A stretch of DNA of 63,983 nucleotides, filler included, from Dimargaris cristalligena (Eukaryota): NCBI GenBank assembly GCA_003614675.1. It is 4 parts of 4 records of this genome, joined end to end, with 100 filler letters (N's around TTAATTAATTAA, not from the genome) between each part and the next. Parts side by side here need not be neighbours in the genome. Positions count along the whole stretch, not along the records: positions 16,852 to 33,598 come from ML002835.1; 3 more parts are not named here. One strand, given 5' to 3'. A program made the translations under genes and the position numbers. This document shows, in pieces, positions 7,382 to 50,516 of the stretch. The notes under the pieces are model-generated. The model had not been told where the DNA came from. It searched no databases and saw only the letters and a list, made by a program, of their open reading frames with translations. Position 1 is the first letter of the stretch, and each line of letters begins with the position of its first letter.

Positions 7382-8874
7382 TCAGAAAATCACACACCCG
7401 GAGCGGGTCTCCGCCGGGGGGCTTGAAACCTTCTCGATGGTGAGGAGCATCTGGTCAAATATTTTATCTGTGTATGGCAATGGGGTGAATCGGGAGGAAT
7501 ACGAACACATGAGTGCATATGGTAGCAGAATAAAAACAGGCGTGGGCTAAAAGTTAGTACCAATTGCGCCTGAATCCAAAGTGACCCCCTACTTCATTAT
7601 TAGATAGGATAGGGAGGGAGGGGTATTACCAGCCAGACGCAATAATACAATAATAGTAAATGAATAAGAAACTGACCTATATTCTCGTTGGTCTTGGCTG
7701 AGCACTCAATGGCCTCACAGTTCCAGCTCTTGGCGAGCTCGATGGCCTCTTCAGCGGACACCTCGCTATAAACGATGACGCGAGGAAAAGTAGAATAGAA
7801 GATGGGTTAGAGGAATGGATGACATAGACAACAGAGCAAGATTAGTTAGACAGCGTCACTAAGTGATGTGGTGGAAATAACCGCTGGGCCAGATTCCATG
7901 CAGTAGGATAGCCGGCCCAGCAGATAAGCGATGGGAAACCGGATATGCAAGGCCGCACCCGGAAGCATTTCCCACCCGAGGCGGGCAGGAGAGGAAAGGG
8001 GGAGGGGTGAATAGTCCCGCGTGTCATCAGCCGACCTTGCCGGTTGGCCTATAGTGTGTTTGGTGAAGAATAGAGGTGTAGCACTGAAGGGGGGGAGGGT
8101 AATATGCCGTTCATTCAACCGCCTCACGCTCCCCCTGTTACACTGCATCCATCCCCGCTCCGCACACCAGCATCGGTGGTCTTGTGGGTAGATTAGATTA
8201 CTATGCCAGACTATAGTCGAACTTACCGTTGGCTGTGGAGGTCAGTCTTGTTGCCTACCAGCACTAATGGAACCCAGTTGGTGCCGAAAAACGACAGGAT
8301 TTTGTCCCGGACGATTTTGGTCATTTCGAAGCTGGTTCGGGAGTCCACGGAGTAGGCCAGGATATAGCCTTGGACGCCCACCGCATACTTGGGGCTGAGA
8401 ATGGTGAATTCGTCCTGCGATTGAGATAGCATGCATTGGAGTAGCGCGGGAATGGTGGAAAGTGGGAGGGTATGCCGTGGGGAATTAATAAGTCAGGGCG
8501 GACGGATACTAATACTGCTAATACTACTACTACTACTACTAATAATAATAATTATAATAATAGCCGTGAAAGCCACTCAAGTCCAGCGACCCGTTCAAAA
8601 GAGAACGCACGAGAAAGCCCTTTGGTGTATGCACGGACGGGTGACTTGGTAGGCTACAAGGTGAGAGGGGAGTTAGGCTTACCTGGCCGGCAGTATCGAA
8701 TATTTCGCATTCGAACTCGATGCCCTTGTACTTGATGATCTTGCGGAAGGTGTTTTCGATGGTGGGGTAGTAGCTGTCGCAGAAGAAGTTTTCGACAAAC
8801 TGGACAATGAGAGTGGACTTGCCGACACTCCGGCTACCCATGACAACAATCTTGCGGACCTTCTGGGACGACAT
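7382..8874 (-). CDS. RHEB: Rheb GTPase (TORC1 activator), 4 exons, 184 aa
   Basis: Exons 8874-8683, 8414-8227, 7765-7677 and 7467-7382 with GT-AG introns join in frame (555 nt). G1 box MGSRSVGKS with the Rheb-specific Arg, effector YYPTIENTF, DTAGQDEF, GNKTDL, ECSAK and CaaX CVIF. Confidence 0.95.
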
Positions 8875-10026
8875 GGCGGACAATGCAGTGGTAGAAAGAA
8901 GGGGAGAGGGAGGGAGGGAGGAAGGTGGCTGTGGGTTGAATGAAAGGAGGGGTGAGTAATAACGATAGTATAGAAGGAATACAGACGAACAGAGAATGGA
9001 AAGGGTAAGGTCAAATGGAGTGAGTGGTTAGACCAAGTGCAAGTAGTAGGGTGGAAAAGAGTGGATAAGAGAAAAGAGGAGCCTGGGGACTTACTTGATA
9101 TATGGCCAGCGTTTCCCCCTACCAACACAGCTAACTGACAGCGGCTGTTTGTATGCAGTTTGTCACATGGTTAATGGAGACTTTGGAGAGGCCCGCATTT
9201 GACCAAAAGCCAACTATATTGCCACTACTGATTAATTTGGTACACTAATATCGGCGGGGTTAGTGGGGAGTGATCTCAGCAACGGAGCGGGCTAGTGAGC
9301 GAAATGGCAATATCAAGGCGACACACGTAAACAGCTGATAAGAACATGTCTTTTGGTGAAACATTAAACTAAAGATGGCCGCAAAGGGCTGTGAATAATA
9401 GGATAAGAGGAAAGGAGAGTTCTATAACAACCCGGAAAGGCCGGCATTATCGATCAGTCTGCCGAAGTGGTAGCGCTGGCTGGGGAGGCTCTGGTGACAA
9501 CGAAGGGGGAGAGGGAACGTTCGGTGAAGGCGGGTTGCTCTAGCGCGTGGTAACGACGTACCCATTATACATGTAAAACGAAGTCCGGCTGGCCCGTTTG
9601 CTTGTGCTAATCCTCGATGCGATATACTGTAAAGCCATAATAAGCCCTGAGCAACAGGTATACTGCTAAGTCTGTACCTCGCAAAGTATGGGTGGAGCAT
9701 ACAAACAGATATACGTGCATATACATGGACGCGACTGACGTAACCACAGTGAGTGCTACCCCGAATTCAAAGCGACGCTAACTTCCAACAGGGGAATGCA
9801 ATGGGCTTGGCGTGTCCATTATATACCACCAAGCTCGAATGCGTTACTGAAGCAATCTGCCGTACACCTCTGCCTTTCTTTCCTCCATTCAAGCCGTTCT
9901 CCGCATTGTTGGAGAATACCCGCCCTCATATCGACTCTACCGTCCGCCCCTTTTTATTATATATATATTTGCATTCTTCAGCTCCATCCCCCTCCCCAGT
10001 CCAATTTGTTGAAACCTCCATTAGAC

Positions 10027-14325: not shown

Positions 14326-15006
14326 ATGATGAACGACATCGATAGCAACAGCGAAGGCGAATACGCCCGGTACTGGGCCGAGTGGTTCCTATTCCTCAAG
14401 GGCAATGAGTATTTCGTGGAAATCGACGAAGAGTTCATCGGGGATCGGTTTAATTTGACGGGCCTCTGCCAAGACGTGGAGCACTATTCCCTGGCCCTCC
14501 AACTCATTTCCGACAATCTGGAGGAGGCCAAACTGAACCAGGAGATGCGGGATGCCGTGGAACGGTCCGCCCGCCATTTGTACGGGCTCATCCACGCCCG
14601 GTACGTCTTAACCGCCCCGGGCATGCAAAAAGTCCTCGAGAAGTACAAGAGCGCCGGGTTTGGCCGGTGTCCCCGCGTACTCTGCCATAACCAGGCGTTG
14701 TTACCGGTGGGGCTAACCGATGTGGCCGGGTTACAGTCCGTGAAATTGTACTGCCCGCATTGTGAAGATATTTATAACCCCAAATCCCCCCGGCACTCTA
14801 ACGTCGATGGCGCTTATTTCGGTACCGGGTTGCCGCATATGATCATGCAGGCGTACTCCACGTTGGTCCCGCAGAAATCCGCCGCCCGGTATGAACCGAA
14901 AATCTTCGGGTTTAAGATTCACGAAACCGCCGAACTGCACCGTTGGCAGGATGCCATGCGGGAAGAGAAACGGAAACGGATCGAGGAAGGGACTCCCCCG
15001 TCATAA
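14326..15006 (+). CDS. CKB: Casein kinase II regulatory (beta) subunit, intronless
   Basis: GNEYFVEIDEEFIGDRFNLTGL, LYGLIHARYVLT, zinc ribbon FGRCPRVLC...VKLYCPHCEDIY, DGAYFGT and YEPKIFGFKIH. Confidence 0.97.
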   Translation: MMNDIDSNSEGEYARYWAEWFLFLKGNEYFVEIDEEFIGDRFNLTGLCQDVEHYSLALQLISDNLEEAKLNQEMRDAVERSARHLYGLIHARYVLTAPGMQKVLEKYKSAGFGRCPRVLCHNQALLPVGLTDVAGLQSVKLYCPHCEDIYNPKSPRHSNVDGAYFGTGLPHMIMQAYSTLVPQKSAARYEPKIFGFKIHETAELHRWQDAMREEKRKRIEEGTPPS

Positions 15007-16751: not shown

Positions 16752-16851
16752 NNNNNNNNNNNNNNNNNNNNNNNNNNNNNNNNNNNNNNNNNNNNTTAAT
16801 TAATTAANNNNNNNNNNNNNNNNNNNNNNNNNNNNNNNNNNNNNNNNNNNN
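16752..16851. other. Artificial contig linker (44 N + TTAATTAATTAA + 44 N)
   Basis: Exactly 100 nt; the core has stop codons in all six frames; identical to the other two linkers. Confidence 0.97.
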
Positions 16852-17305
16852 GTAAAATTCAAACCAGCTGTATAAGGTTTTACAATATACGTGTATGGGC
16901 GAATATATGTGAGAATATCTTTTAACCAGTGATATTGGCCGCATCCAATGGATTTTTCATTATACAGCCTGAATGAACTTCTCCCATATGATTCCACCGA
17001 CGTCTTAAGCATACTCATACGAGTAAATAATGGTGGGGCAGCGTGGAAGCTAAGCTTTCGAAAGAGGCCGCGATACTATGTGTTATTAGTAAGTTGTTAT
17101 ATTTATTATTAAAAAATTGGTAACTTGAACCAGCAAAATACCAACTTCAGTCTGGTGTTGATTAAGCTTCGCCACTCTTGGCCCACGGGGCATTATCAAT
17201 GAAGCAACTACATAAACCCATTGACCCCTGATGTAAATTAAAAGGCTAGGTATAAAATAAAATAAATATGGAAATGCGGATTATTGACGGACCCGGTCGT
17301 TCCGT

Positions 17306-18031
17306 TCACAAAAGCCCTATAGCCGAAATTCCACTCAACCCCGCGACTAGTCCCAGCATGTACTGGGCAAGGGATAGGTGCGAGGATCCGATGGGGGCGT
17401 CACTGCTTGTCGAGGCCTGGTTAGGCTGCATCGGTTGTTTAATATTAGCGCAAGTGACGGGTTTTCCGGCGGAGTTCATGACGAACACGGAATGGTCCAC
17501 GACACTATTCGGCTGACCGACCAACGAAATTTGGTTATCGTACCACGAAGCGTGGAACCCCCGCTCGTAAGCGTAAAACCCGCCGTGTTTACCGGACAAA
17601 TCCCCCGCGGCACAAGCGTCGGGGTCGTCCTCGTATTGGTTGCAGGTATAGGCGGAGGACTTGAGTTTCACCTGGGTGGGGTTAAAGAAATTGCTCGGGT
17701 GTTTACATTCATAGTTTTTGGCGGGTTTCTCGCGGATGCTGAGGGTGTACATCTCGTCGTGGTCGAGACCCTGGTCGATTTGAATGTCAATACGGACAAG
17801 CGGGGGTCCACCAAGGGCGGGGTTGCTCTGGGGGGCGTGCGTGGAAAACTTAATAAAGCCGGAGACCCCCGTCCGACTCGGAAAGTAGGCGTAGACTTCG
17901 TCAAGAACAAAGGGATTGGGTGGGGGCTCGAAGGTCTCCTGGGCCGCGGCGGGGGGAATGGATAAGCTGCCCACCAGAGCTACAATCCCCAGGCATGCAA
18001 TGGCCCGGACGAAGAAGGCCGTCGTCATCAT
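17306..18031 (-). CDS. Secreted, probably GPI-anchored Cu-only SOD (Sod5-like) fold protein lacking metal ligands (pseudo-SOD)
   Basis: N-terminal signal peptide, VSGFIKF, REKP..C....FNP, GDLSGKHG, D.QISL, TCANI, a Ser-rich linker and a hydrophobic C-terminus. The His ligand positions read S, R, F and M. Confidence 0.88.
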   Translation of the reverse strand: MMTTAFFVRAIACLGIVALVGSLSIPPAAAQETFEPPPNPFVLDEVYAYFPSRTGVSGFIKFSTHAPQSNPALGGPPLVRIDIQIDQGLDHDEMYTLSIREKPAKNYECKHPSNFFNPTQVKLKSSAYTCNQYEDDPDACAAGDLSGKHGGFYAYERGFHASWYDNQISLVGQPNSVVDHSVFVMNSAGKPVTCANIKQPMQPNQASTSSDAPIGSSHLSLAQYMLGLVAGLSGISAIGLL

Positions 18032-21000
18032 GGACTGTTTATTGTATTTCGGGGTGGGGGATAGATAAGAATCGGTCCACTGCCAAGATATGGGATATAG
18101 GGGATAATTTAATTATAATATCTCGAGAAATAGAATAATGAAAAGTGAACGACTAATGTAAACAATAAATAAATAAATAAAATGTAAAAATTATTAATAT
18201 CGTATGAAGGGCTAAGGAGGAGAGGGGAAGGGGGGCCCGTGTACTTAAATAGGGTACCCGATACGACGTCCAGAGAACCCTCGTACGGGGAGTCCATAGA
18301 TGACATTATGCCTCTGTCCGTTTATGCAAAACAACCCGATTAGATGCACCAATGCTCCCTCTGGTGGTATCTTCAGCGGCTCACCCAGAACCACTACAGA
18401 CTATTAGAGAGACAGAGGGGGGACCAAAACCCCTCTTCAATACGATCGTAATACTGGTGGTACCCCAATATTACCTGTTTGACACACAAGGACTTGGCGG
18501 AACCCGTCCTCCTCTTCCCAAAAACAAGCGAGGGAGTGGCCCTTATTGGAACCTACAGTACTTATGGTTTAGGCCACCATCTTATTCAACTGGTGATGAT
18601 ACCGCCACCCATCCTTAACACTAGTTTGGCTTGGAAAACTCCGGTAGTTTATGTCTGGGAAATCAGGTGAAGGATGAAGGTAGGACAAAACCTATCGAGC
18701 TGAATTGCGATGTCCAAACGGATACCACCCCACTAATCTGAGGTCACTAGCGAGTAGGCACACTCTTGGCTACTCTATATATCTAAAGTAGACCAGTAGG
18801 AGTTTTTTAAGAGGGACCGTCGTCCATCAACGAGGTAACGTAAGTTCCGACGGTGTATTGCTACACCCTAACGAGCTGAACAGTCAGTGGTATTGGTGAG
18901 GTCATCAGTGTCACCAAAAACTATTATGTCTAAAGGGCAACTGTCAGAATTGGCTAATGACCAATTGCCAAACTAGACAAATGGTGAATTTATGATGAGG
19001 AGGGGGGAGGGTATTTTTCAACAAATGTGCCGTATTTTTACAATTTTAATCAACAATCCATTATTTAAATTTTAAGCTAAATGACTATATTTCTACTAAG
19101 GAGCCCTAATATACTACCATCGCATTGTCCAGTTGCATTTTTAAATAGTAGAAGCGACTAGGATGACAATAATTATGACTGCTAAGTTTATGATTTAATA
19201 TATAATATTATTTGTTTAATACCAAAATGATATATAAGTGAAGGGTTCCAGGTATAAGTTGCAAGTCATCAATACCATGGCTACGCTTAATAAAATCAGA
19301 GTAATAGGACATTTTAGATTACCCTGTTGCTTAATGCAAAGCTCTGTGATATGGAATTACAGTGAAAGTGCTACTGTAGTAAATACCCGCAGATCATAAT
19401 CCAAATCAAGTGGCTGAAAAATATTTCATCAGAACTGCCTCTATGGTTTAGCCATCGCTTATTATGGTTAAGTAGTCTACTAAAATACACCCCTATCCCA
19501 ATAAACCCAACAGTCGCTAAAGACCATAGAGAATAAGAGGAAGAGATGAGCAGTAGATTTTATAATTGACATCAACATAAGAGGCGACTACCACCGGCGT
19601 TGGTAGGCCCAAATGGTACCTTAGGGTAATAGGGTAAACGTCAATATAATGTAGCATAAAGGCGATATAGTATAACAGAGCGGCTTTTAAACCCAGCCCA
19701 GCGTCTGTTTTCTGATAACTGACTCTTAAAGTATTGACAGCCAACAATAGCAGAGAATAGCTTTGACTCACCATGGAGAACACTGAATGGCACTGTACTT
19801 AAATTGCCAATACTGCCAAGACTGTCTCGATGGTCTGTATATAGTTCCATAAAGAGCGACTGTTTAGTCTGCAATATATAATGGATATGGCGGTACTATT
19901 CGCAAAGCGAATGACTAGTGTTTGATATATTGAGAGCTATTTAACGTCGCTGGATAGGGAGGGATGGACAATTGCTCACTATAGATCCTCTGCAGATATA
20001 CCATCCAATTTATCCCGATATCACTTACTATTTGAGGATCTGTAATGATGGGCAGGCCGGGAAATGTCTTCAGTAGTGACGAAATACCACAATGATGGGA
20101 GCAACTGAGCTGAAAAAATAAGAGGTGTCTAAAATTAAGCTGAATGGCAGCTATATGGTGCCATATAATTCCAAACAAGCACTCCGATACAGTCTGTATG
20201 ACAATACGACCTATCAACCCGACTACTACTGATTTAAAGACAGACGTTACGAAGTGTTCAGAATAGGTACTGAGGAAACCTTACACTAGCCAACGGCATA
20301 CTATACTCCTCGGGCAGTGTTGCAGTATATGAGGATAGTTAGGTAGTATACCCACTTTTGACACTACACAGCTAAACCGGGGTGGTATATAAATACTGGA
20401 GTATATCAGCTACAGTGATCTTTATGGGTGTTTACAAATAAAAATAGATAGAAACGTTGCTAAATGGATGGTACCAGGGATAAATCGCAATCTCAGGTGG
20501 GATTTAAAAGTCGAATGCCTATGCTGAACAAAGTGCGAAGAAAAGTGAACTACAATGGGGAGTTGCAAAGTAAAGTATGGGCGGCATTATAAAGGGCGAT
20601 TGGCCCGAGAAACCAAAACGAGCCCGCCGGGCGATACCCTTTAACTATAAGGTATCCATGGATACAAAATGGCGACAGTTATGCAAGTGATAGTCGAGTG
20701 GTAACGTTTTAAATATATTGGATTAAACAAAATATAGTGATGTTTATAAGTCCTGTTGTATTAATCAGTATTCGACAACTAGTCAGCACGGAGACACTCG
20801 GTTGCCGGTATTTCGCCTGCCAAACATCCAACGCCCTTTCAATTATATCAGTGAACACTGGCTTTATACACCAATTCATCAGATAGGGTGGATGTCTTCC
20901 CTGGTGGTCTCCACTAAAAACCACTGATATCGGATGAGGCATCCCTCTAAACTGGGATCGGTCCTGGGCGTATAGATTTATCCGGAAAAGTAACCGTCGG

Positions 21001-24000
21001 CGTTTTGCAGCACCGCCACCAATCGGATTGGGTTCACCACGAATTAGGATGATCCACCCAGCTATTTCCAGCACAGTCAAGCCGACTAATCGCAGTCGGT
21101 ACGCTTTCCCATTGCATCGTATCGGGAAGGCATTGGGAATCCGAACACCGTCATGAAAGGGATAGTTACATTTGCCACTAGAAGCGTTAAATGCAGACTG
21201 ATCGTAGGGGGAGGGTTGAGTCAGCGGAGGTACATCTTCAGGGGGGTAGAAAGTTACCCACGCCATCGCCTGACTGAAGTTGGGTTTGACGTAATTTTTA
21301 CCGACCCATGTTCAAAGGGCCCACCACTACGCCCTGTGTAAAAGAACCCCCAGACGAAGTGGAGCTGCCATTCTATTATAGTTTTGGTTATCGTCAAATG
21401 GGAATCCAGCCACGCCGAGCTTTACCAAGTGGGCAAATCCTATAGTGCGTTTAACCATAGTCAATGATTGGTTGGCAATGGCCTCCTTGAGCCAAAGGTG
21501 TAAAGAAACCGAACGTAATACATGACAGCAGCTTGATTAATGAAAGTAGAAAATAATGACGAAATGGATTGAAGCGACCATACCCTGTAAACCAGCTAAA
21601 CGAGCGGGAGTGTAAAGGATACCATATATGGCTGGGGTGTTTTAGGGACTAATAGATATCTTATGTAGCAATACAATAAAAGAGAATCAGAGAACGACGA
21701 TGATAAATGAATCAAGAGTACAGGCAATGGACTACTCATGGACCGCCTATTACATCCATAACCACACTTCAACGAGTCCTTGGATGTTCGCCACATCCCA
21801 TTGCCTATTGTTGGTCTAATTTACCTACATTGTTTATATTTATTTATCCTTGGATGCATCTCGGAGTCCTTCTGGCCTTCAAGGGTGCGTTATTCGCTAG
21901 TCTGGCACAGATCACCCACTATCCTGATGAGTAGGGACTACGTGGCTGGACCAGGGCCAAGTATATGGCAAGTGCAATGCAGTGGATAAAAGTAATACAC
22001 ACGCCTACACTAGGGATCGGTCTCACACTTCGGGTTCCAACACCTGGCCCACACATCGTACAGGGGCGTTTCCATTCGTATGGGTAAACTAACCAGTGGG
22101 TTTCTAGCAACAACAAAAAAAAAACCCCTCTCCGGGCAAAAGCCATTGGACAAGAAGGCAAAAAATATATATATAAATATAAATAAATACCAGGGAGTCC
22201 AGGGGAGACGATATGATTTAGGCCAACTAAAAGACCAACCCTCGCCACACAGCTCGTACTGTCAATTGGTGAATTGTATGGGAAACGACTGAATCAACGC
22301 TTGCTTCTAGACGACCCGTGGAAATACTACGGTCAGTGTAAATATACACCTGGCCATGGTTAATCGCCAATAAAAAAAAAGACCAACGGTGTCGGAGTCG
22401 AAAAAAGGGATGCGCGGGTAAGGTACACCGCACAGCAGAGCGGCCAGGGTATAAACCCTTGGAACACGATATAGGTGGAGGGTACACCCAAGGCAAGCAA
22501 GTCGCAGTAAAAGCACATAAATGACAGGTCAATATATAAACCACCCAACTGCATGAATAAGTGGGCTTCCAGTAAGAAATATACACACCCACCAATACAC
22601 CACTTACAGTACCGCTGAACAAGAGAGAGTGGCGGGTCAGCTTCGTATTTCGGTAACCACCAATGGCTGACCACCTCAATGACTGTTGTTGGAACAAGTG
22701 GGAAGGGATGCCAAAGAATAAAAATAGTGGTGATAATGTAACCGACAATGTGAATAAACGACCTCCCTGCCACTTTATTGTGATTTTCAAAACATGCTGA
22801 GCTATGTGAGTAATAAGTAGGTAAAGTCAAAGGGGTTGACCAAAAATTACTATATCAGTATATTCAACAAAGGTCCAAGCTGCCAACTTTAACATGTGCG
22901 GTCTAGGAATACCCATCAAAACTTTGAATGTGGCAAGTTCAGGTACTCGCCGACAACCCACCGTCCCATAGTTCTGGGTTGGGTGTGTGTCACATGCTTT
23001 GCAACCGACTCCCATTGAATAGGCGGGCTTTCGGACGCTGTAAGACGGTTTAATGTATTACGAGAGGCATACAGAAGTGAAAGTCGAAAGTTGAAACCCA
23101 ATTGCCCCCTCCCCTCCCCCGATGATAATATTCAGTATAGGTGTGAGACCCACTAAACAGAATCCTTCACCACGGTAGAGTGGGGTTAATTTACGTCGAT
23201 GACCCACGTTACACTATCTCAACACCCACCCACACATACATACACATACACACATATTGACAGATTGGGTACACTAGGTGTGAAGCGAAGATCGGCACCC
23301 CTAAAAACAAATACCTAGACATGGCTGAGCCGTTTGGCCCCACCATTCTCACAGAGACCATGGATAAATGGCTAAATCGGTGGGTGGAAATGGAGCTATG
23401 GTGATATACTTTGGACGTACCTTATGTTGTTCCTTGTGGTCCACGAAGGGTAGGAATCCCCGCCAAACAGTTTATAGGTCCCCGTATGCATAGACTATTG
23501 ATTAAAATTAACGATGGTGGCATACCGACCCACTTCTGTACCCGATACAATTACCCTCAAAGTACAACTTAGCTTAGATATGTTCCTGGGCCCAAACAGA
23601 CCGGGTGCACATCAGCCAGAATCCCAATATCCCCAAATAAGATTTACGCCATTGTAATGACGTTGGGAATGGGGAGGTACTGGGATGATTTCCTGTGCTC
23701 CGTGGTAAACAATTGCCGACCCCAACTTCCAATTCAGCATAATTGAACATTATAGGGATCAACCCTTGTTGGAAGCCAGAAATCATAATGAAATGGAAGC
23801 TGCCTTAAAGCCTCAGGGGGTAAAGTTCCCGAACTGACCATCGCTGGTATGTGTGTGGGGGGGGGAGGGGTGGAGGATATATGTATATATGGGTATTTGT
23901 GTGTGGTGGTTGAATAGCTGTGGATGTAGTTGCAAAAATAGCCATTGCTCTGTTCGCCCTGAATAATAGGCAATGTTAGGAAAATCACTCGGTGATTTAG

Positions 24001-26814
24001 GCCCAAAGGTCACTCTAGATTTCAATTAGGGTGCTCTTCCCCAATACTTGCTGAATGAAGTGTAGTAGGTGTGTTTGGAATAAGCCAATGCTGCTTAATC
24101 GATACTGGATCAATGGAAGGTGGGAAAATAACCCCACACACATTACATTATCCATGGCGTAGCTTCTGAGCAAATTTGCTCGCCCCTTCACCACTCGGTG
24201 GAACTGGGATTACTAGATTAGGTAAGTGCAAGTACCCTATAAGGCATCCGGATTTTCTGGCATTGGGTGGGTGGGGGTATTGGGTGAGAAATGGCATTGT
24301 GACTGGAGCTGTCGACCATAAAATAAGAATGTGCGTGAGTAATCCCTGGGGCCCATGGAACCTGCCTGACCCTTTTATCCACCCCCAACGGTGATGTGAG
24401 CGGATGTCTTTCCTAATAAAGGCTACATTCGGGACTATCCCCGTAGCTGGGTAGTAGAACTGAGGTTGGGTAGTAAAAATGCGATAGCGACTTGAGTAGC
24501 AAACACACATTGGAGCGCCGGAATGGGTGGACCGGAGTGGTTGGGGGAGATGAGAGCGATCGTTTATCTAATTCTGTGGTAATTTCGCATCTTTGGATGG
24601 GCTTTTCGGAGCCGGTCATAGGTCATGGGGTTCGGCTAAATTCGTTTGGTCCAAGTATCACAAGCTATGAATTGACAGGGTCAGTATTCCAAACAAATCA
24701 AGTGAAACCGCTATACCAGGTATCGGTAAAGGGGAGGGGAGGGGGCCGAGTTAGTGAGGTTCAATGGTCGATTTACTCCCATACATGACACACCTATGGT
24801 TTGATGAATCCATGCTGTTTTATGTGATGAATTATAATTCCCCCTCGGTACTTTGCTCAGCTAATTTAGATGAAACGGTCAATCGGCCAACTCCCCTATA
24901 TATCATTTCGCTTAGTGCTGCGGCCTGCGCTGGCCCAGGAGCTGCAACCAAGACTCCCCACTAATGAATAACTCTGCCCCTCCACTCCACTCTCTACCCC
25001 TTCCCCCTGCCCCCGCTCCACCTTCTCCACACCCGGCCCCACCACCGACTCACTAGCCCGATGTAACCTCCCGGCCCTCGTGGGCCACCATTGGATTATT
25101 TCACCCCTACCACCACCAGGTACTATCTTCCCTCACTCAACCATCAAATTACTAGTAGCGGTGGAGTTGAAGTTGGGCGGGATAGGGTCAGAGGGGGGGG
25201 GGCACCGAGACATTGATCACCAAAAAAGCGTAGCTATGTATGGGTTACTCTATTCCCCCTCTCAATCAAGAAGTGGACGCGACTTGGTGCACATCACGGG
25301 TAAAAAATCAGTGACGGAAGGCCCGGTGGGTCTGACTACGGCCGATAATTAATGAGTCCCCCTGTTTAAATAGCATACCCCTTTTTATTATTGTCCGCCT
25401 TTCCTATCCATAGGCTCCACCACTCTTTCAATATTGCTTCAAGCATGTTCGAGGAATGGCTTCCCTTTTTATGGCAATATACACACATCAAGAAGGTACT
25501 ATCCATACCACGCGATAGCCAGAGGGACTCCATCCCCTCAGTGAAGAAATAAATGAATGTGGGTGGCGTTGAGTGTAAAGGGGTAGTGTAGGGGAAAGAG
25601 CCGAGTTGGGGGTGATTGTACAATTTAGAAGACGAAGATACCGGTTGAAATATACATAAAACAACCGAATGGCAGTTATGGCGAAGGTAGTTTGAAGCAA
25701 AGTGCAGGTCTGAACAGCCGATCAAATCACTATGGAGTAGCCCTTCGAATGGGGGGACATGAACCCCACCCAGCCCAAACACTCTACAATCGGTCGATAA
25801 TATATACCTTGGCAACCACCTATTCCCAGTTCATCTGTCTCCGCATCTGGCCCACAACGGTACTGCCACTTGAACTGCTACGTACCACAATGGTTGAGGT
25901 GGTTTTGACTGGCCGGGATAGCCAAAAAGGCCAATTGTGGACCAAGGGCTCTTTAGTGGCCCATGGGGAGATTAATAGGTCAATGTCATGAGCTGAGTAC
26001 TACCCGAGCTACCCCCAACTAGTAGTGAATGTAACGGTAACGCAGCTAGCCCGTCCGGTTGGTTCCCCTCACCTTCCCAGTCGAGTCTCTATGTAATCAC
26101 CTATGGGCAGACCCATACAATGGTCACTCGTACCTACGGGTACACTACGGGTATTCCCTCCCGCCACCCATCTTGATAGAATTATACAACCAGATTTACA
26201 CTTAACGATAAATTGGTAATAGTAAAGGGTCAAATGTGATTTTGATAGGTCACCAAGAAAAAATAGAAGAAAACGTAAACATTAGGTTAGGGACGGAGGA
26301 GGAGAAGGATTGTCTTCACCCTGAGCAGCATGGACTGGATTAGCAGGTCACCGGGGCGGAATTGAAGAAGAGTGATATATATGTACGGGGTTCATAATTT
26401 AGACATCGACTTTATCAATATGCGGAAGGATAGTCAGCCTTACATACCTCTGGTCTATGATGACCCAATCGCATACCTTGCTGTCATTTGACCCTATTAT
26501 ATTCGTGTATACCTAGGCCATTAATAGATGGACAGGTAGGACCAAAAAATAATAATCGTTTCATCCTATTGTCTTCCTTGGTGTAGATTGTGAGCGAGAC
26601 GGTTGACTGCCATGTGAGAATAGGAGCAAAAGATGGGGGGAATGAATTATTAGTATAGGTGATTTGCGCCTGCTCCTTCTCCCCCCCCTTCAATTTAAAG
26701 CCCCTCCCAAAATCATAATAATAATGTAATAATAAACAGTGGATGGTTGGGCCGTTTCGTCTCACTCAGAAAGGGACTGAGGGAGAAGATAGCCCCCCCG
26801 CCTGCCATTGCATT

Positions 26815-26875
26815 GACCAATCACAGGCCTCGGTTACAACTAAACGTAAACAAACTCCCTTGGCGGCTTGTTTAC
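26815..26875. promoter_or_regulatory. CCAAT + forkhead-site module A
   Basis: GACCAATCA (CCAAT at 26817), TAAACGTAAACAAA at 26841-26854 and TGTTTAC at 26869-26875. Confidence 0.45.
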
Positions 26876-29250
26876 ATTTTACCCCGCTAACTAACCTTAG
26901 TGTTTAAATCCGATAGGCGAGGGCATTACCGTATATTTATTTTATCGGAACAGTGTGGATCAAAATAGCCAACTGTCCGACGTTTCTAGGTTGACAAAGC
27001 TAGTCACGGCGGTCTGACCTAGGTTTCAGTTATAAGGGGCACTAGGACCTGCGGATTAAGCCCGACTAGTATGCCTATAAAAATACTTTTGAGTTTATGG
27101 TCCAAGGAACCCTGTGTTCCATCCACGCACGCTTGGTACAGAAACCATCCGAGAGAGGCGATGGAACAGATCAATGGACTGTTTCTCGCCGCTATTGTTT
27201 CTCGGTTGGGTCACCATTATGGTGACGTATGGGTGGGTTAACCTCCCATCGTCCCGGGATCCCGCCTATATTCCCTTGGTCTATTCGGAGACCCTGTTTT
27301 ACCCGGCCAAACATGGGCTATTTTGGCACTGTTGGGGGCAATACGCAGTCTATGGAATAGGGTTACCTCCCTCCTCTCTTTCTCTCCCCTCCCCCCCATG
27401 CGCTGACCAGGGTTAACGAAGCGACTTGGCTGAAAAAGGCCATATCCCTGAACCCGCCGTCCCATGGCAGGATTGTGCTGACCTGAAACTTCACCCCCCA
27501 CTCACGGACCATTGCGAGCAGCTGTGGCGCACTTCAGCCGGCACTCGTGATTGGAATATTCTCAGTGGACCGATGCTGGGCATCTGGGTAAATAAACTGC
27601 ACCGCGGGTAGATGGTTCCAGAGCCGATAAATGATGCTCTAATTCCCAAATGATAGGCCAAGGGATGCCAGTCGAATTAAAATATTAAGAAAAATGGGAT
27701 GGGCCGTCAAGGAGAGAAAGCGAGAGGGATAGAGTGAGATTGAGAGGGTTTTTCGACAGCGCTGAGAAGAAACAAGTGTAAGAAAACGGGAAGAAAGGAA
27801 GGGGCTTCATTACACAAACTGTGACTCTCCCATACACACGCCACTGTGTTCTATTGCGCTGGCGGGTGCGGCTGTGATTAAGCGGGCTGTGTGGGCTGTG
27901 TGGGCTGGGAGGGTGAAGAGTCGTCACTCATCCCAGTGGATTGTGGTCAATTGGCACCAGGGTGTTGGTTTTTTCCATTGCTTTTGAGCCTATTTTTTAC
28001 TTCTTTTTCTTTCTCATTTTATCGGGCACACTGGTCCTATGTTACGACGACGGGGTGAATGACCCCTAAGGTCGGCTTCGATGTTTGGCCATTTTTCTGG
28101 CTACTTCTATTGCCCTGGGCCGTTTTTACGTATATATAGAAAAACTATACCTATGAATCCTATAATTACCCAATCCCTCGATGGGTCTTTCTCCCCCTTT
28201 TAGACCCCCTTGCCACATTCCACCCCCCCTTTGGTTCACCCGCCCACTGCCCTTGGGAACTATGTATTCTATCCCTCCGGTATAGTTAAACCTTAACAGC
28301 GACTAGCGTCTCTACCCTTTCCCATAGCTCAGGGTGCTACTACCACTGTGCCACCGTCGATTGCGCTCCCATTTTTGGGGAGAAGACTAGTCGATCGAAT
28401 TATCCCTTCCCTTGCCCTTCGGTGAAGCACTGGGGCTGTCAAATACCCTACCGCTCCACATGTCTTTGACCAGGGCTAGCCGTCACTCAATTCTGACCCC
28501 ATCATTGTACACCGAGACTAGACCATGTCGGCCCTGGAAGTGGCTTACCCTGGGTCGTCAGAATCCCACCGGACCTACTGCGCCACTTCTGCCTGGTCCG
28601 CTGCAAGCCGGGAATAAAAAGGAGATTGGGGGACTGGAGCTCAATGATAAACAACAAAAAAGAAGGCTGCACACGGTGCCATCAGCGGCATGACGGAGGC
28701 AATAAAACGTACGATAAATGAGCATGCCAATCGGAGGACCAATAGGTTCGACTAGTGCGCGCGTGTATGGGAGATATGGGTATATTGGGGTGTGGGTGTA
28801 TGGGTGCGTGCCAATGCCAATTGTAATGTAAATATAAATGTAGGCGCGTAGGGAGTCATTGTTAAGCCTGAGGTATCATGTAAAGGCAGTGGGGTAGACC
28901 GGGCTGGTGTTGTTCACTGGGACAATGCCGAATGGGGAAACGGGGGGCAGGGAGGAAACATTGGAACAGTGGTGCCCAATTTCAGGTTAAACCGAGGGGA
29001 AAGGAGGTGGTGGGGGAAGAGAGGACGAGTGAGAGGGGAGGGCAAGGAATAGAGAAAGTGCGGTAGTGGTAAGTCCAGGATTAACCTCGAATTGCCGGTA
29101 GCTAAAGGGGTACGAACACTCCATTTGGTCACGCTCCGAGTCGTAGAAGTGGTCCATAAAAAAGGGACTACTACGAAGAGCTGGGAGACGACTAGGCCAA
29201 TCCCAAATCCCTCAGCACTTTTCCAATTCTGACCCTCAGCTCCTAAATAA

Positions 29251-29516
29251 GTAAACGTAAACAAAGCGTGGAGCAACAAGTAAACCTGCGCTTCAGCGAT
29301 TGGTTGGGGACAAGGGCGGGTATTGCTGGGGGGGAGGTGATGGGTAGGGTAGAGACAGCGACAGGAAGGGGGGGAGAGGAGTGCTTCTCTAATGCCGGCT
29401 TAAAGTAAACAGGCATTATTTACTTGCAGCATCCGTGGACCAATCAGAGGCGCGCCCGGCAGGCTAATGTAAACAATACCGTGGGGGGATTGTTGTCACT
29501 TTCACTATGCGTTTAC
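29251..29516. promoter_or_regulatory. CCAAT + forkhead-site module B
   Basis: GTAAACA at 29257, 29405 and 29469; TATTTAC at 29417; ATTGG at 29299; GACCAATCA at 29438; GGCGCGCC at 29449. Confidence 0.5.
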
Positions 29517-32500
29517 AAAAACCATCAATGAGAGTGGGGTTGTACTGATAAGCTAGTATTATTCTCCCATCCACACATAATTTATTATATATATTTATAA
29601 ATACATATACATCATATTCAGCCAGGTCCACACCAACGCTTTCCATCTTGGGCAGAGCTTTGAAAGGGGTCAGTGTGAGGTGGGGAAGGAGTAGTTGTTA
29701 TAGCAGCAGTCTTGTTCACCCATTGTTATTTTTGTTAAATAGAATTAACCCAAAGGCCAATATTTTTTTTTAATTGGACAACCGGGCAATCTTACCGGGA
29801 CGAAGCTGGAAAGGAAGTGCAAAAGAATCATTAGTCCATGGTACTTGGCCGTAAATGGGCTACGCGCGTCTCTCGAGCGAGATGCTTGCACCTCATCTTC
29901 TCCCCCCTTCATGATTATTTACTTTTGGTTGTTTTGGCGTCCAGTATCTTATCGGGAGCGCCTCTTTCCATACATGTTTTCCCCCTTAACGTCAACACTC
30001 CTCCCCCCCATGGCCTGCTTGCCGACAGGTAGGAGACACATACATGGTTGTGTATAATAGCCTACCATCACATTAGTTGAATTGGTAGCGGAGAAGGGGG
30101 GCGGATCCAGTTGCTTCATTGGATTACTCCAGAACACAGACAGCCCAAGAATGTGTGTGGCTTTTTGCCCATGGTGGCAGCTTCGGAAGCCCACCTATTC
30201 CCCTGCCAGCCACTCAGCATCGAGCAACGCTGGCTGCTCTCTCCGTCAGTAGTGCCTGCCCTCCCCCCCCATGTACACACACATACACCCTCACTCTCGG
30301 GGGGTGCTGTGCGGAATACCTTAAAAAAATTATAATTCAACCTGCTCAGTCTGTGTTACACCACTAGCCGAGTAGCGTGCGGGTACCCTCTCTTTTCTCT
30401 GACTGGCCCGGCTCCTCTCCCTCACCAAAACCTTTATAAAACCCTGCTCGCCCGGCCTCGACGTCCAACCAAGATTTCCTTATCATAGGCTGCTGACTGA
30501 CTCTCCCATGCGCGTGGACATTGTCTTTTACTTTGTCGCTCTGTTATGTGTGTTTCTCGTACCCACCCGCGGTCGAACTGTATCTCTCTCCTTCCCTCTC
30601 TATCTTTCCTTGGTCCGTACCGTATCTGTTTTGCGTGTAACCCTTTGTTGTCGTTTGTTTCTTCTTCCTATCTCTCGAGACCCGTTGCCTCGATTGGATC
30701 ACACATTCGTCTAGCCCTTCGTTCATGTACCTCCCCCCTTATCTTTAGCTAGCATCTCGTTTATATAATACCACCCCACTATCTTCGCTCGAGTAAATCA
30801 ACCGTCCATCCCTGACTTCTGTTCATCCTGTAGTTTGCGACCTGTTCTTCTCCAGTAGCCTCTCGCAAGTAGTTTACGAGTATATGTTAGAAATAGCTGC
30901 TCCAGTCGAGTCCTCATCATAAAAAAGGTAATCGTCACCGAAATATTGGCAATCGGGGCTGTTTAGATTTTCTTAGGGATATTCGGTTAACGCGTGTAAA
31001 GGGATATCAGAGTCAGCTCTAATTTTGCCTTTGTTCCGGCTTCTTGGGGAGCCAACTTGGTGGCGGTTGATTTATCCGGGTATGATGACTCTTCGTTGGC
31101 TTTTGTTGCGAAGTCTAATTGGCCGCCACGCCGAAATAAAAATACCCGACTGGTGGTGATTTTTTCGGTGCTCTATCAGTGGTATTTCGATCCCTATACT
31201 CTTTTTCTTTCGTTCCCCTTCCTCGCCTGCTATTCTCCCCCCCTCCTCGTTGACCACAGCGCCCCTGGTTACCAAATTGAGTATGCTTGGCTCCCCCATA
31301 TGGCCCCCTTTTTCAGGCTGTTTTTCGGCATTTATCTCCCTCATCCCCACCGTCGGGACTTGCCGTCTCTCCACCATTGTTACCATCCTTAGCTTCTCGC
31401 CCTCCCTAGTATTCACACTCTGACCTGCTCCCTGTCCTCCGTACTACATTTCACCTATTGACACTTCCCCCGCCCCTCTTTAGCAGACCCTCCTCCTCCT
31501 CCCAGTGGTTGATACGTTGCCTACCACAGGCCCACATTAGACCACAGCCCCAGTGCAACACCAGCCCCGTCTCCTTAGTTCTGACAGCCTATCGCTACGC
31601 ACGGCCACAGTCGCCCACTTATATATTATCCCCTCTGACAACCCCCCTCTCCTGGAATCGCTCCCCATTTGGCCCTTTTACCCTTGTGTGCCCCTCTCTC
31701 TTGACTCCTCCCACATATCCCTTTTATCCGTGGTCCGATTTTTGTGGGTCCTCTCGCTTTACACTCCACTACTTTGGCTGGATCGCACCTATTACTTGAG
31801 CAGATTGATTCCTGTAGCCTATCCTCTACTGTCGAACCGACCACACAACCACCCCACCTTCCCCAAACGTTTCATATTCTCCAACTGTACTGGTTACTTG
31901 GAGGTCCACTAAACCCCATTTATTTTAGCCACCTTTTACTGACCACTTTATACCCTAGCCTCGGCCCTGCACCGTTCTTGTTCCAAGAATCGCGACTCGT
32001 TAATCCGCTCTTCGCCTCCTTGTTCGCAAACTCGGTAATCGTAACTAGCCGGTGCCGTTAGATTATCTTCACCGACCCCAGTCATCAGCCATTATTCATT
32101 GTCGCTTCTTGATTAGCGTGTGTTCCCTCGCCGCCGATTACAGCCGCGACCTGATTGTTTATTTTGACCAGCGTAACCGACACCTTTCATTGGCTCGTCC
32201 GCTTCACCGATTGCGTGTTTACTTTTACCAGCGAGAATATTACTAGTGCGTATCCTGCTGCTGCTGCTGTACGCCCGCGCACTTTCCCTTGCTTCCTCCT
32301 CTTCTCGTCCAGCCTAAGCCTGCTTAGCCCGTCTGGCCCTTACTCCATCTCCGAATCTCCCGTTCTCTCACTATCTCACTCGATTGCGGTGCCTGTGTGA
32401 AGCTCTCCTTGCTCTCTCCTCCCCTCACTCCTTGTCGCCCTCTCTCTCCCCTTTTCACTTGCTCCCTGTCCGATTCCTGTAGATGCGCTCCCATTGGTCA

Positions 32501-33598
32501 CTTGGGTTCTAACCAGCCTGTCTATCCATCGCCCTTCCTATTATATTATTATTACCCCACGCTTGAAACCGCCTGTCGCTATTTATCACTTCACGCCTTG
32601 TAGCCGTATCGTTGCGCTTTGTTTATCATTCTCCAGCCCACTAATCCCCTCTCCCTCCCCTGCTCACTGCGCTGTGACTTCTCTCCTAAGACCTCGCTCT
32701 GGTTTTATATTTCGCTTGTTTTCCGTATTGGTGTGCCTAATCGCTCAGAGCTCCCCCTCTCTCTTCTGCGTGCGCCCCTGACTATTGACCGCCATTGCGC
32801 AGTTGTGATCAGTTCAAATATTGACGTCGCCCAGCCCCGCCTGCCCGTCCGTCCGTTTGCCCTGCGGATACTGTTTATATTGTGGTTCATTTATATATAG
32901 ACCAACAGCCGCCCCCACTCATCGCTCTCTTTTCCGTCTTACCCGTTACTTGCGTCCAACGTCGGTCCTCATCAAGTTTTGGGTCATATTGATCTAGCAT
33001 TACAGTTCCAATCCTCTGTTATTACTTCTATTCTAATTGTCTAATATCCGCTCTCACCCCCCTAATTTTCCTCCCCGGTCGACTTACAACTTGGATTCAT
33101 TGGCCAATTCCGTCTCTGGATCAGTCCGCCCGCCTTACATATTCCATAACGCCACAGGCTTAGTTTACATACCCTTAAAAGATCATATCCGCTCCATCGT
33201 AGTAGTGACTTTCACCTACTAGTGTGTTTTCCCAGTAACTGACGATTCTTTCCTCTAGGGATTTTCCATTTACGACTAACCAGCTGCGCCAATCCCCTCA
33301 CTATACCGCACACACACACACACACCCTCCCCCATACCTCTTTCCTTTCCTATTCGGCCCACTACCCTGCCTCAGTACCCTGGACACTACGTCGCTCCTT
33401 CCCACTGCCTAACCATCGACCCAGTGCTTGTCCATCTCTTTTCCTCTCTCGCTCACCGCTTCCGCCAAACAGTTGTTCTCTCATTTGCCAATCGTTTTTT
33501 TGTGGAGGGCCTAGTTACTAGTTGGTTTATATCAAGTATATAGAGCGGCTTACCTATTTCCAGTCCTTTTTGACGATCATTGTTTTGATTTTGTCCTC

Positions 33599-33698
33599 NN
33601 NNNNNNNNNNNNNNNNNNNNNNNNNNNNNNNNNNNNNNNNNNTTAATTAATTAANNNNNNNNNNNNNNNNNNNNNNNNNNNNNNNNNNNNNNNNNNNN
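33599..33698. other. Artificial contig linker
   Basis: 44 N + TTAATTAATTAA + 44 N. Confidence 0.97.
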
Positions 33699-50416: not shown

Positions 50417-50516
50417 NNNNNNNNNNNNNNNNNNNNNNNNNNNNNNNNNNNNNNNNNNNNTTAATTAATTAANNNNNNNNNNNNNNNNNNNNNNNNNNNN
50501 NNNNNNNNNNNNNNNN
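50417..50516. other. Artificial contig linker
   Basis: 44 N + TTAATTAATTAA + 44 N. Confidence 0.97.

Follow-up and report, generated by a model that had tools for sequence, protein, structure and literature searches.

A gene on the minus strand of a 63,983-nucleotide stretch of Dimargaris cristalligena DNA (GenBank assembly GCA_003614675.1; the whole stretch is referred to below as the window) encodes a 241-residue protein, P0001, with the predicted fold of the fungal Cu-only superoxide dismutases (SODs) typified by Candida albicans Sod5. Judging by its translated sequence, P0001 has lost all four histidine ligands of the copper site, the arginine that precedes Cys-Ala-Asn-Ile (CANI), which is presumably the catalytic one, and the equivalent of Glu110. 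The Cu-less version is kept in at least three Dimargaris species, as far as their predicted proteins tell. Since two congeners carry an equivalent, apparently inactive form, P0001 is probably a repurposed non-enzyme. The reading we favor, and hold to be reasonably probable, is that of a catalytically dead Cu-only SOD paralog under purifying selection, tethered at the cell surface and serving as a non-enzymatic binding, recognition or structural module.

The Sod5-type fold and the replaced copper site

An AlphaFold2 model of P0001, built from 36 aligned sequences, has a mean predicted local distance difference test score (pLDDT) of 78.7; across residues 41 to 200 the block means range from 77 to 97 and reach at least 90 in 12 of the 16 ten-residue blocks. 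The best PDB matches of the model in Foldseek are five C. albicans Sod5 entries (E 6.8e-10 to 1.9e-8, TMt 0.76 to 0.79). VIA-align likewise ranks Sod5 entries best (Z 19.4 to 20.5, root mean square deviation 2.0 to 2.9, 139 to 147 aligned residues), with the silkworm EA4 protein (Z 17.2) and Cu/Zn SODs (Z about 16) as runners-up. At the sequence level, phmmer against the PDB returns C. albicans Sod5 chains only (E 1.7e-4 to 3.6e-3, over residues 54 to 198), and hhalign of a three-ortholog profile against 12 canonical sequences gives a probability of 99.8% (E 2.9e-29). The eight-stranded Greek-key barrel by which fungal Cu-only SODs are recognized appears in the predicted structure. Further, position 191 lies six residues past position 185, the same distance as in Sod5 and in the consensus, indicating that loop VII is of the short Sod5 type. 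The Sod5-type fold had been proposed in a preliminary description of this locus, and AlphaFold2, Foldseek and VIA-align all bear it out; every scaffold motif quoted there was found in the translation (EKP..C, FFNP, GDLSGKHG, DNQISL and CANI). In the ESM Atlas, P0001 falls near "superoxide dismutase" clusters of Ascomycota (0.91 to 0.94) and an oomycete cluster (0.81 to 0.86), matches that serve as leads only.

Other identities were rejected. A Cu/Zn SOD proper is outranked structurally by Sod5 and does not fit the short loop VII. CSRPs consist of 4 to 12 tandem domains, and P0001 has one domain in 241 residues. CCS was set aside because P0001 has no fused Atx1-like or C-terminal Cu-binding domain, its termini being a leader and a hydrophobic tail.

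Active-site residues were mapped by phmmer against the PDB Sod5 chains, by a MAFFT alignment of 36 single-domain relatives and by hhalign of the three orthologs against the 12 canonical sequences. The three alignments are concordant: S98, R100, F115 and M185 stand in place of the four ligand histidines, P191 in place of the arginine and A141 in place of Glu110 (Table 1). We take the His-x-His pair replaced by S98 and R100 to be H75 and H77 of Sod5. All four histidines, absent from P0001, are intact in 25 of the 36 aligned sequences, and 22 have arginine at position 191, where P0001 has proline. The equivalent of Asp113, D144, is invariant (36/36), so that of the E110/D113 signature of fungal Cu-only SODs P0001 retains the aspartate and has alanine for the glutamate. 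The preliminary description was therefore right that all four ligands, the arginine and Glu110 are replaced and too sweeping in stating that every catalytic residue is gone, since D144 is kept.

A copper site formed by other histidines, which the preliminary description had named among the findings that would refute its view, finds no support in conservation: none of the seven histidines of P0001 is conserved in either ortholog (P0003 of Dimargaris verticillata and P0157 of Dimargaris xerosporica), and no histidine of those proteins aligns with one of P0001. The former ligand positions differ between P0001 and its orthologs at all four sites, which read S, R, F and M in the former and E, Y or D, I and R in the latter, suggesting that these are released positions rather than a metal site. 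With all ligands, the arginine and Glu110 replaced and no other histidine conserved, we conclude that P0001 most likely no longer holds Cu in the canonical site and no longer acts on superoxide by the Sod5 mechanism.

A single arginine occupies a former ligand position in 6 of the 10 sequences with at most two ligand histidines (a set that includes P0157 and P0154 and excludes P0050). It is R100 in P0001 and P0139, R185 in P0003, P0157 and P0047, and R115 in P0093; its position therefore differs even among the orthologs, at 100 in P0001 and at 185 in P0003 and P0157. This arginine may act as a cation surrogate facing the invariant aspartate.

P0001 has five cysteines (13, 109, 130, 140 and 194). 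Two of these, C109 and C194, align with the canonical SOD disulfide. Residues C130 and C140 make up a second conserved pair that is absent from C. albicans Sod5, where the segment falls in an alignment gap; to go by the aligned cysteines, single-domain relatives outside Candida seem as a rule to have two disulfides. No N-x-S/T site is present in the 241 residues.

Orthologs, paralogs and signs of selection

A HMMER scan of 1.84 billion representative sequences gave 169 matches at E ≤ 1e-3, and the best 150 were examined. The closest among the matches listed is P0003 (E 8.4e-27), a partial protein of D. verticillata; a profile search with P0001 and P0003 added P0157 of D. xerosporica. Orthologs, whose collection the preliminary description had called for, thus exist in two species, and both lack the four histidines and the arginine and share A141 and P191 with P0001. 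Identity is 62/140 between P0001 and P0003, 78/178 between P0001 and P0157 (43 to 45%) and 124/143 between P0003 and P0157. The next-best matches after P0003 among those listed (P0004 to P0046 and others) are long proteins of about 500 to 4,200 residues with 3 to 11 matched stretches, a pattern that marks them as CSRP-type, multi-repeat Sod5-like proteins.

The alignment comprises P0001 and 35 of the 39 listed single-stretch proteins, leaving out P0002 (a fragment of P0001), P0104, P0118 and P0134. The tree, also of 36 rows, drops P0078 (a partial P0156) and the truncated P0147 and P0148 and adds P0157, P0156 and P0154. The reference tree was built with the six trait columns removed, and a second build supplied comparison path lengths. 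The three Cu-less orthologs form one clade (support 99/96), and its sister is a four-histidine protein of Dispira simplex, P0098, with support that is not strong (94/82).

Over the split between D. cristalligena and D. verticillata, the path length is 1.75 in the Cu-less clade (1.83 in the second build), 1.53 (1.38) for the canonical enzymes P0123 and P0099, and 1.27 (1.29) in a second paralog group. Divergence across this species split is thus only 1.1 to 1.4 times greater in the Cu-less clade than among its functional relatives. The window also encodes a casein kinase II beta (CK2-beta) that shows 100% identity to its D. cristalligena counterpart and 69% to the D. verticillata one; with so slowly evolving a protein already down to 69%, a neutral copy of the SOD-like gene would be unrecognizable and its frame broken. 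Identity between P0001 and P0157 is 29/46 in predicted strands versus 35/93 elsewhere, and the least conserved stretch, residues 100 to 114 beside the former site, has 1 identical residue in 15. These patterns fit purifying selection on the scaffold of P0001, as aligned sequences can indicate it. Selection for the fold over decay, as first proposed for this locus, is in keeping with the loss shared by the orthologs, the paralog-like divergence and the contrast between strands and other positions.

Two further paralogs occur in D. cristalligena: P0123, a canonical Cu-only SOD (four histidines, Glu, Asp and Arg), and P0156, which keeps four histidines and has Val in place of Arg, so the dismutase job appears to be covered elsewhere. 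P0156 belongs to the second Dimargaritales group, which also holds P0154 and P0086 (D. verticillata and D. xerosporica, respectively), P0091 (Tieghemiomyces) and P0139 (Dispira parvispora) and stands apart from the Cu-less clade (support 100/99). All five members have lost the catalytic arginine and carry hydrophobic tails; P0156 retains the four histidines and the others have one or none. Judging by these residues, the group looks like a Cu site decaying stepwise inside one orthologous group.

Within the 36-sequence alignment, 25 proteins have four ligand histidines, 10 have another residue at one or more ligand positions and in 1 (P0050) this region is truncated. Dimargaris, Tieghemiomyces, Dispira, Dipsacomyces and Puccinia are the sources of the degenerate sequences, and changes between the intact and degenerate states number at least 6 on the tree, in a sample that is biased because it was picked by similarity to a degenerate query. 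Between none and three of the four histidines remain in Sod5-like secreted proteins of the rust fungi Puccinia striiformis (P0047) and P. graminis f. sp. tritici (P0049 and P0096) and of Dipsacomyces, a kickxellalean saprobe (P0093).

Gene, termini and genomic setting

The gene is an intact frame, as had been stated from the outset, with 241 codons from ATG to TGA and 268 between the flanking stops. When the surrounding 3.5 kb was shuffled 300 times, stop-free runs reached at most 202 codons (mean, 114). Its GC content at third codon positions (GC3) is 0.69, versus 0.73 in the CK2-beta gene of the window. The sole identical entry in the protein collection is P0002, a 134-residue internal fragment (residues 75 to 208 of P0001) without leader and tail; a word-index search with P0001 alone returned only this entry, and the full-length reading was not found there.

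Both ends of P0001 are hydrophobic. Relatives in the 36-sequence alignment likewise start with hydrophobic leaders. The C-terminal stretch, residues 219 to 241, reaches the very end of the protein, and the paralogs P0156, P0091, P0139 and P0154 have the same kind of end. From this layout P0001 would be secreted and anchored by glycosylphosphatidylinositol (GPI). Of the signal peptide and GPI-like tail named in the preliminary description, the hydrophobic stretches (4 to 26 and 219 to 241) are confirmed, and their identity stays putative, assigned by hydropathy and inspection.

Table 1. Coordinates in the window of the P0001 gene and of the features discussed in the text
Feature	Coordinates	Strand	Basis
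Coding sequence with stop codon, 241-residue SOD-fold protein (P0001)	17306..18031	(-)	complete ATG-to-TGA frame
N-terminal leader, residues 1-31, putative signal peptide	17939..18031	(-)	hydropathy (core about 4-26); Ala-Ala-Ala/Gln site by inspection
Greek-key beta-barrel of Cu-only SOD (Sod5) type, residues 41-200	17432..17911	(-)	AlphaFold2, Foldseek, VIA-align, hhalign
S98-I99-R100, replacing the His-x-His Cu ligands	17732..17740	(-)	three alignments
C109, canonical SOD disulfide partner of C194	17705..17707	(-)	column conserved in 35/36; pairing presumed from the family
F115, replacing the third (bridging-type) Cu-ligand His	17687..17689	(-)	three alignments
C130...C140, second conserved Cys pair, putative second disulfide	17612..17644	(-)	35/36 aligned sequences
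A141-A142-G143-D144, Glu110 equivalent changed to Ala and Asp113 equivalent kept	17600..17611	(-)	three alignments
M185, replacing the fourth Cu-ligand His	17477..17479	(-)	three alignments
P191, replacing the catalytic Arg before CANI	17459..17461	(-)	three alignments
C194 (in CANI), canonical SOD disulfide partner of C109	17450..17452	(-)	alignment
Ser/Thr-rich spacer and terminal hydrophobic tail (219-241), residues 206-241, putative GPI-attachment signal	17309..17416	(-)	hydropathy

The window consists of four blocks joined by spacers at 16752-16851, 33599-33698 and 50417-50516, each made of 44 N, a 12-base motif with stops in all frames and another 44 N. The block 16852..33598, which is 16,747 bp long, carries the P0001 gene at 454 bp from its left edge. 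Because the window concatenates contigs, the true neighbors of the gene are confined to this block, and CK2-beta and other genes on the other, merely joined blocks are no physical neighbors of it. None of the 67 other stop-to-stop open reading frames (ORFs) of at least 70 residues on the block has a Pfam match at E ≤ 0.01, and neither tandem repeats nor direct or inverted ones of at least 40 nt occur on the block. The neighborhood of the gene offers no clue to its function. The remainder of the block, 18100-33598, has a GC content of 0.41 to 0.51, versus 0.50 to 0.56 across most of blocks 3 and 4; this seemingly empty region could hold orphan genes or short exons or be gene-poor. No second SOD-like locus was found in the window, where tblastn with 13 family proteins matched the P0001 locus alone. 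Block 1 holds a Ras-family GTPase exon (PF00071), a Tpt1/KptA RNA 2'-phosphotransferase (PF01885) split over two ORFs and casein kinase II beta (PF01214), spread among 8542-9027 (-), 9739-10518/10949-11428 (+) and 14326-15003 (+).

Competing readings and known SOD-fold proteins

According to the favored reading, P0001 would be exported via its N-terminal signal peptide, fold as a Sod5-type beta-barrel held by C109-C194 and probably also by C130-C140, and be tethered at the cell surface by its C-terminal GPI-type signal. There it would neither bind Cu at the canonical site nor dismutate superoxide in the way Sod5 does, and selection would maintain the scaffold together with a set of clade-specific surface residues. 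By analogy with oyster dominin and the Cu-less animal CSRPs, the most likely role would be that of a non-enzymatic binding or recognition module, or a structural one, at the surface of the parasite. The analysis shows the fold, the loss of the site, the matching loss in the orthologs and a divergence near that of functional paralogs; the absence of any metal, secretion and anchoring, and the binding role with its partner are what we infer.

Several points weigh against this reading. The modeled fold may be partly inherited from canonical SODs, since the AlphaFold2 input alignment consists mostly of these, and a Pfam scan of P0001 returns no family at E ≤ 1; PF00080 (Sod_Cu), which 34 of the 36 alignment members match at E ≤ 0.01, has a gathering cut-off of 28.9 bits that the orthologs also fall below (P0157, 20.2 bits; P0003, 19.2 bits). 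Both the signal peptide and the GPI signal of P0001 are read from hydropathy alone, and P0157, rather than ending in its hydrophobic stretch, continues for about 85 residues beyond it, an extension that would be explained by a gene-model error or by a transmembrane anchor followed by a cytoplasmic tail, the latter making P0157 a type I membrane protein. The conservation argument amounts to about one comparison, because P0003 and P0157 are identical to each other at 124 of 143 positions. The binding role is drawn by analogy only. Finally, the rust protein PsSOD1, whose site is reportedly Cu-less, is cited in later papers as a "potential Zn-only SOD" conferring tolerance of superoxide, so a site without Cu ligands is not always read as an inactive one.

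The PsSOD1 precedent, the invariant D144 and the seven histidines of P0001 would suit a protein that is still an enzyme or metal binder through non-canonical residues, either a differently metallated dismutase or a Cu buffer. None of the seven histidines is conserved in the orthologs, though, and the former ligand positions differ at all four sites; moreover, Zn is not redox-active. We regard this as very improbable. A relic, intact by chance or weakly constrained, poorly or never expressed and functionless in D. cristalligena, would accord with the location of the gene, only 454 bp inside its contig, with the lack of Pfam matches among the 67 other ORFs of at least 70 residues on the block, and with the long stem branch of the Cu-less clade (0.95 to 1.15). 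Against it, the frame is unbroken wherever the three species' proteins align, although they differ at more than 50% of residues, the divergence is only 1.1 to 1.4 times that of functional paralogs, the scaffold is conserved above the loops and GC3 is housekeeping-like, all of which make a relic unlikely.

P0001 might instead be a pseudoenzyme partner that binds an active surface paralog, P0123 or P0156, and stabilizes, positions or regulates it in trans, much as Cu-less repeats are proposed to do inside animal CSRPs or as CCS domain II does with SOD1. Such a paralog does occur in the same species, and a review of these proteins proposes a chaperone-like role for the Cu-less CSRP repeats and for CCS domain II (PMC13017621). 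No sign of contact was seen, and no paralog lies beside the gene, the P0001 locus being the only one matched in the window by the 13 family proteins. Sod5-type enzymes are known as monomers, which also speaks against partnership, and we judge the idea to have a small chance of being right. A complex prediction for the P0001 domain and P0123 scored 0.00 against a mark of 0.34, a result with no bearing either way.

A broader and speculative extension, which we put forward as a long shot, goes beyond the favored reading of a conserved surface pseudoenzyme. In biotrophs that form haustoria (Dimargaritales and rusts), Sod5-type SODs would repeatedly have become metal-free binding modules, secreted or at the surface, with the Dimargaris clade as a fixed, ancient case at the interface (recognition, adhesion or decoy) and a migrating arginine filling the former Cu pocket opposite the aspartate. 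If true, the pseudo-SOD scaffold would be a new class of fungal interface protein and not an antioxidant. Dimargaritales parasitize other fungi via appressoria and haustoria (PMC9866270), and 13 SOD5-like secreted proteins of the P. striiformis secretome are counted as candidates for scavenging of reactive oxygen species (PMC5732408).

In the literature, the extracellular Cu-only SODs of fungi figure as antioxidant virulence factors, and surveys of genomes class every Sod5-like gene as such, the P. striiformis secretome paper (PMC5732408) among them. The P0001 locus suggests, from its residues, that some Sod5-like genes are conserved non-enzymes. It also opens the fungal side of a question raised for animals, namely, the role of Cu-less extracellular proteins with a SOD fold, and offers a small, single-domain, disulfide-stabilized example that would be easy to express and test. 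For a stand-alone Cu-less fungal Sod5-type protein, no description was found in the literature searched, the likeliest primary papers lying outside its coverage; the same literature held nothing relevant on a Dimargaris superoxide dismutase, and the word "superoxide" does not occur in the Kickxellomycotina genome paper. The suggestion that P0001 may belong to an undescribed pseudo-SOD family thus stands within that coverage as far as fungi are concerned, but not for the kind of protein, which is established through dominin, the Cu-less CSRPs, CCS domain II and the poxvirus decoys; the orthologs, too, are already public as hypothetical proteins.

P0001 resembles C. albicans Sod5 and other fungal Cu-only SODs (PDB 4n3t, 5kbl and 5cu9) in its predicted beta-barrel, canonical disulfide cysteines, short loop VII, GDL(S/A)GKHG and CANI motifs, Asp113 and putative secreted, GPI-type layout. 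It differs from them in lacking the four Cu histidines, Arg and Glu110, in failing Pfam Sod_Cu and in adding C130 and C140. Fungal Cu-only SODs are defined by an intact Cu site in the 2026 review by Peterson and Culotta (PMC13017621), and by the family's own definition P0001 is not a Cu-only SOD enzyme but its homolog. The canonical P0123 belongs to the same fold family (the hhalign probability between the groups being that given above) and to the same organism; unlike P0001, it keeps four His, Glu, Asp and Arg, has no C-terminal tail (173 residues) and lies elsewhere in the tree. Members of the second Dimargaritales group, Dipsacomyces P0093 and Puccinia P0047 and P0049 share with P0001 a single Sod5-type domain, leaders, often hydrophobic tails and Cu sites that have decayed in part or entirely, but they fall in separate clades, most keep one or two histidines and P0156 loses only the arginine.

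In the parts of the Peterson and Culotta review considered here, Cu-less SOD-fold proteins are those of animals and CCS only, the animal cases being the N-terminal repeats of CSRPs, those CSRPs of Bombyx and tardigrades in which every repeat is Cu-less, and oyster dominin (PMC13017621). The Cu-less CSRPs are similar to P0001 in having domains of the Cu-only SOD type that keep the fold and disulfide and have lost the Cu site, and CSRPs are described there as expressed and as extracellular or GPI-anchored; in contrast to the single-domain fungal P0001, they are animal proteins of at least 100 kDa with 4 to 12 tandem repeats. Dominin, according to the same review, is secreted and has the SOD fold but neither an intact Cu site nor SOD activity, with a reported role in the recognition of bacteria (PMC13017621); unlike P0001, it is an animal protein of the Cu/Zn SOD branch, and the two are likened by description, not by sequence. 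CCS domain II and the SOD homologs of poxviruses also have the SOD fold with the catalytic site lost, and both work by protein-protein binding. The former docks on SOD1 (PMC13017621), and the Leporipoxvirus homologs are described as inert pseudo-SOD decoys for CCS (PMC13017621, PMC7605207). Both are intracellular and of the Cu/Zn SOD type, with fused Cu-binding domains in CCS and a viral origin in the other case, whereas P0001 has a putative secretory layout. With its fold kept, its ligands lost and its gene conserved, P0001 is a fungal, single-domain case among the already known SOD-fold pseudoenzymes.

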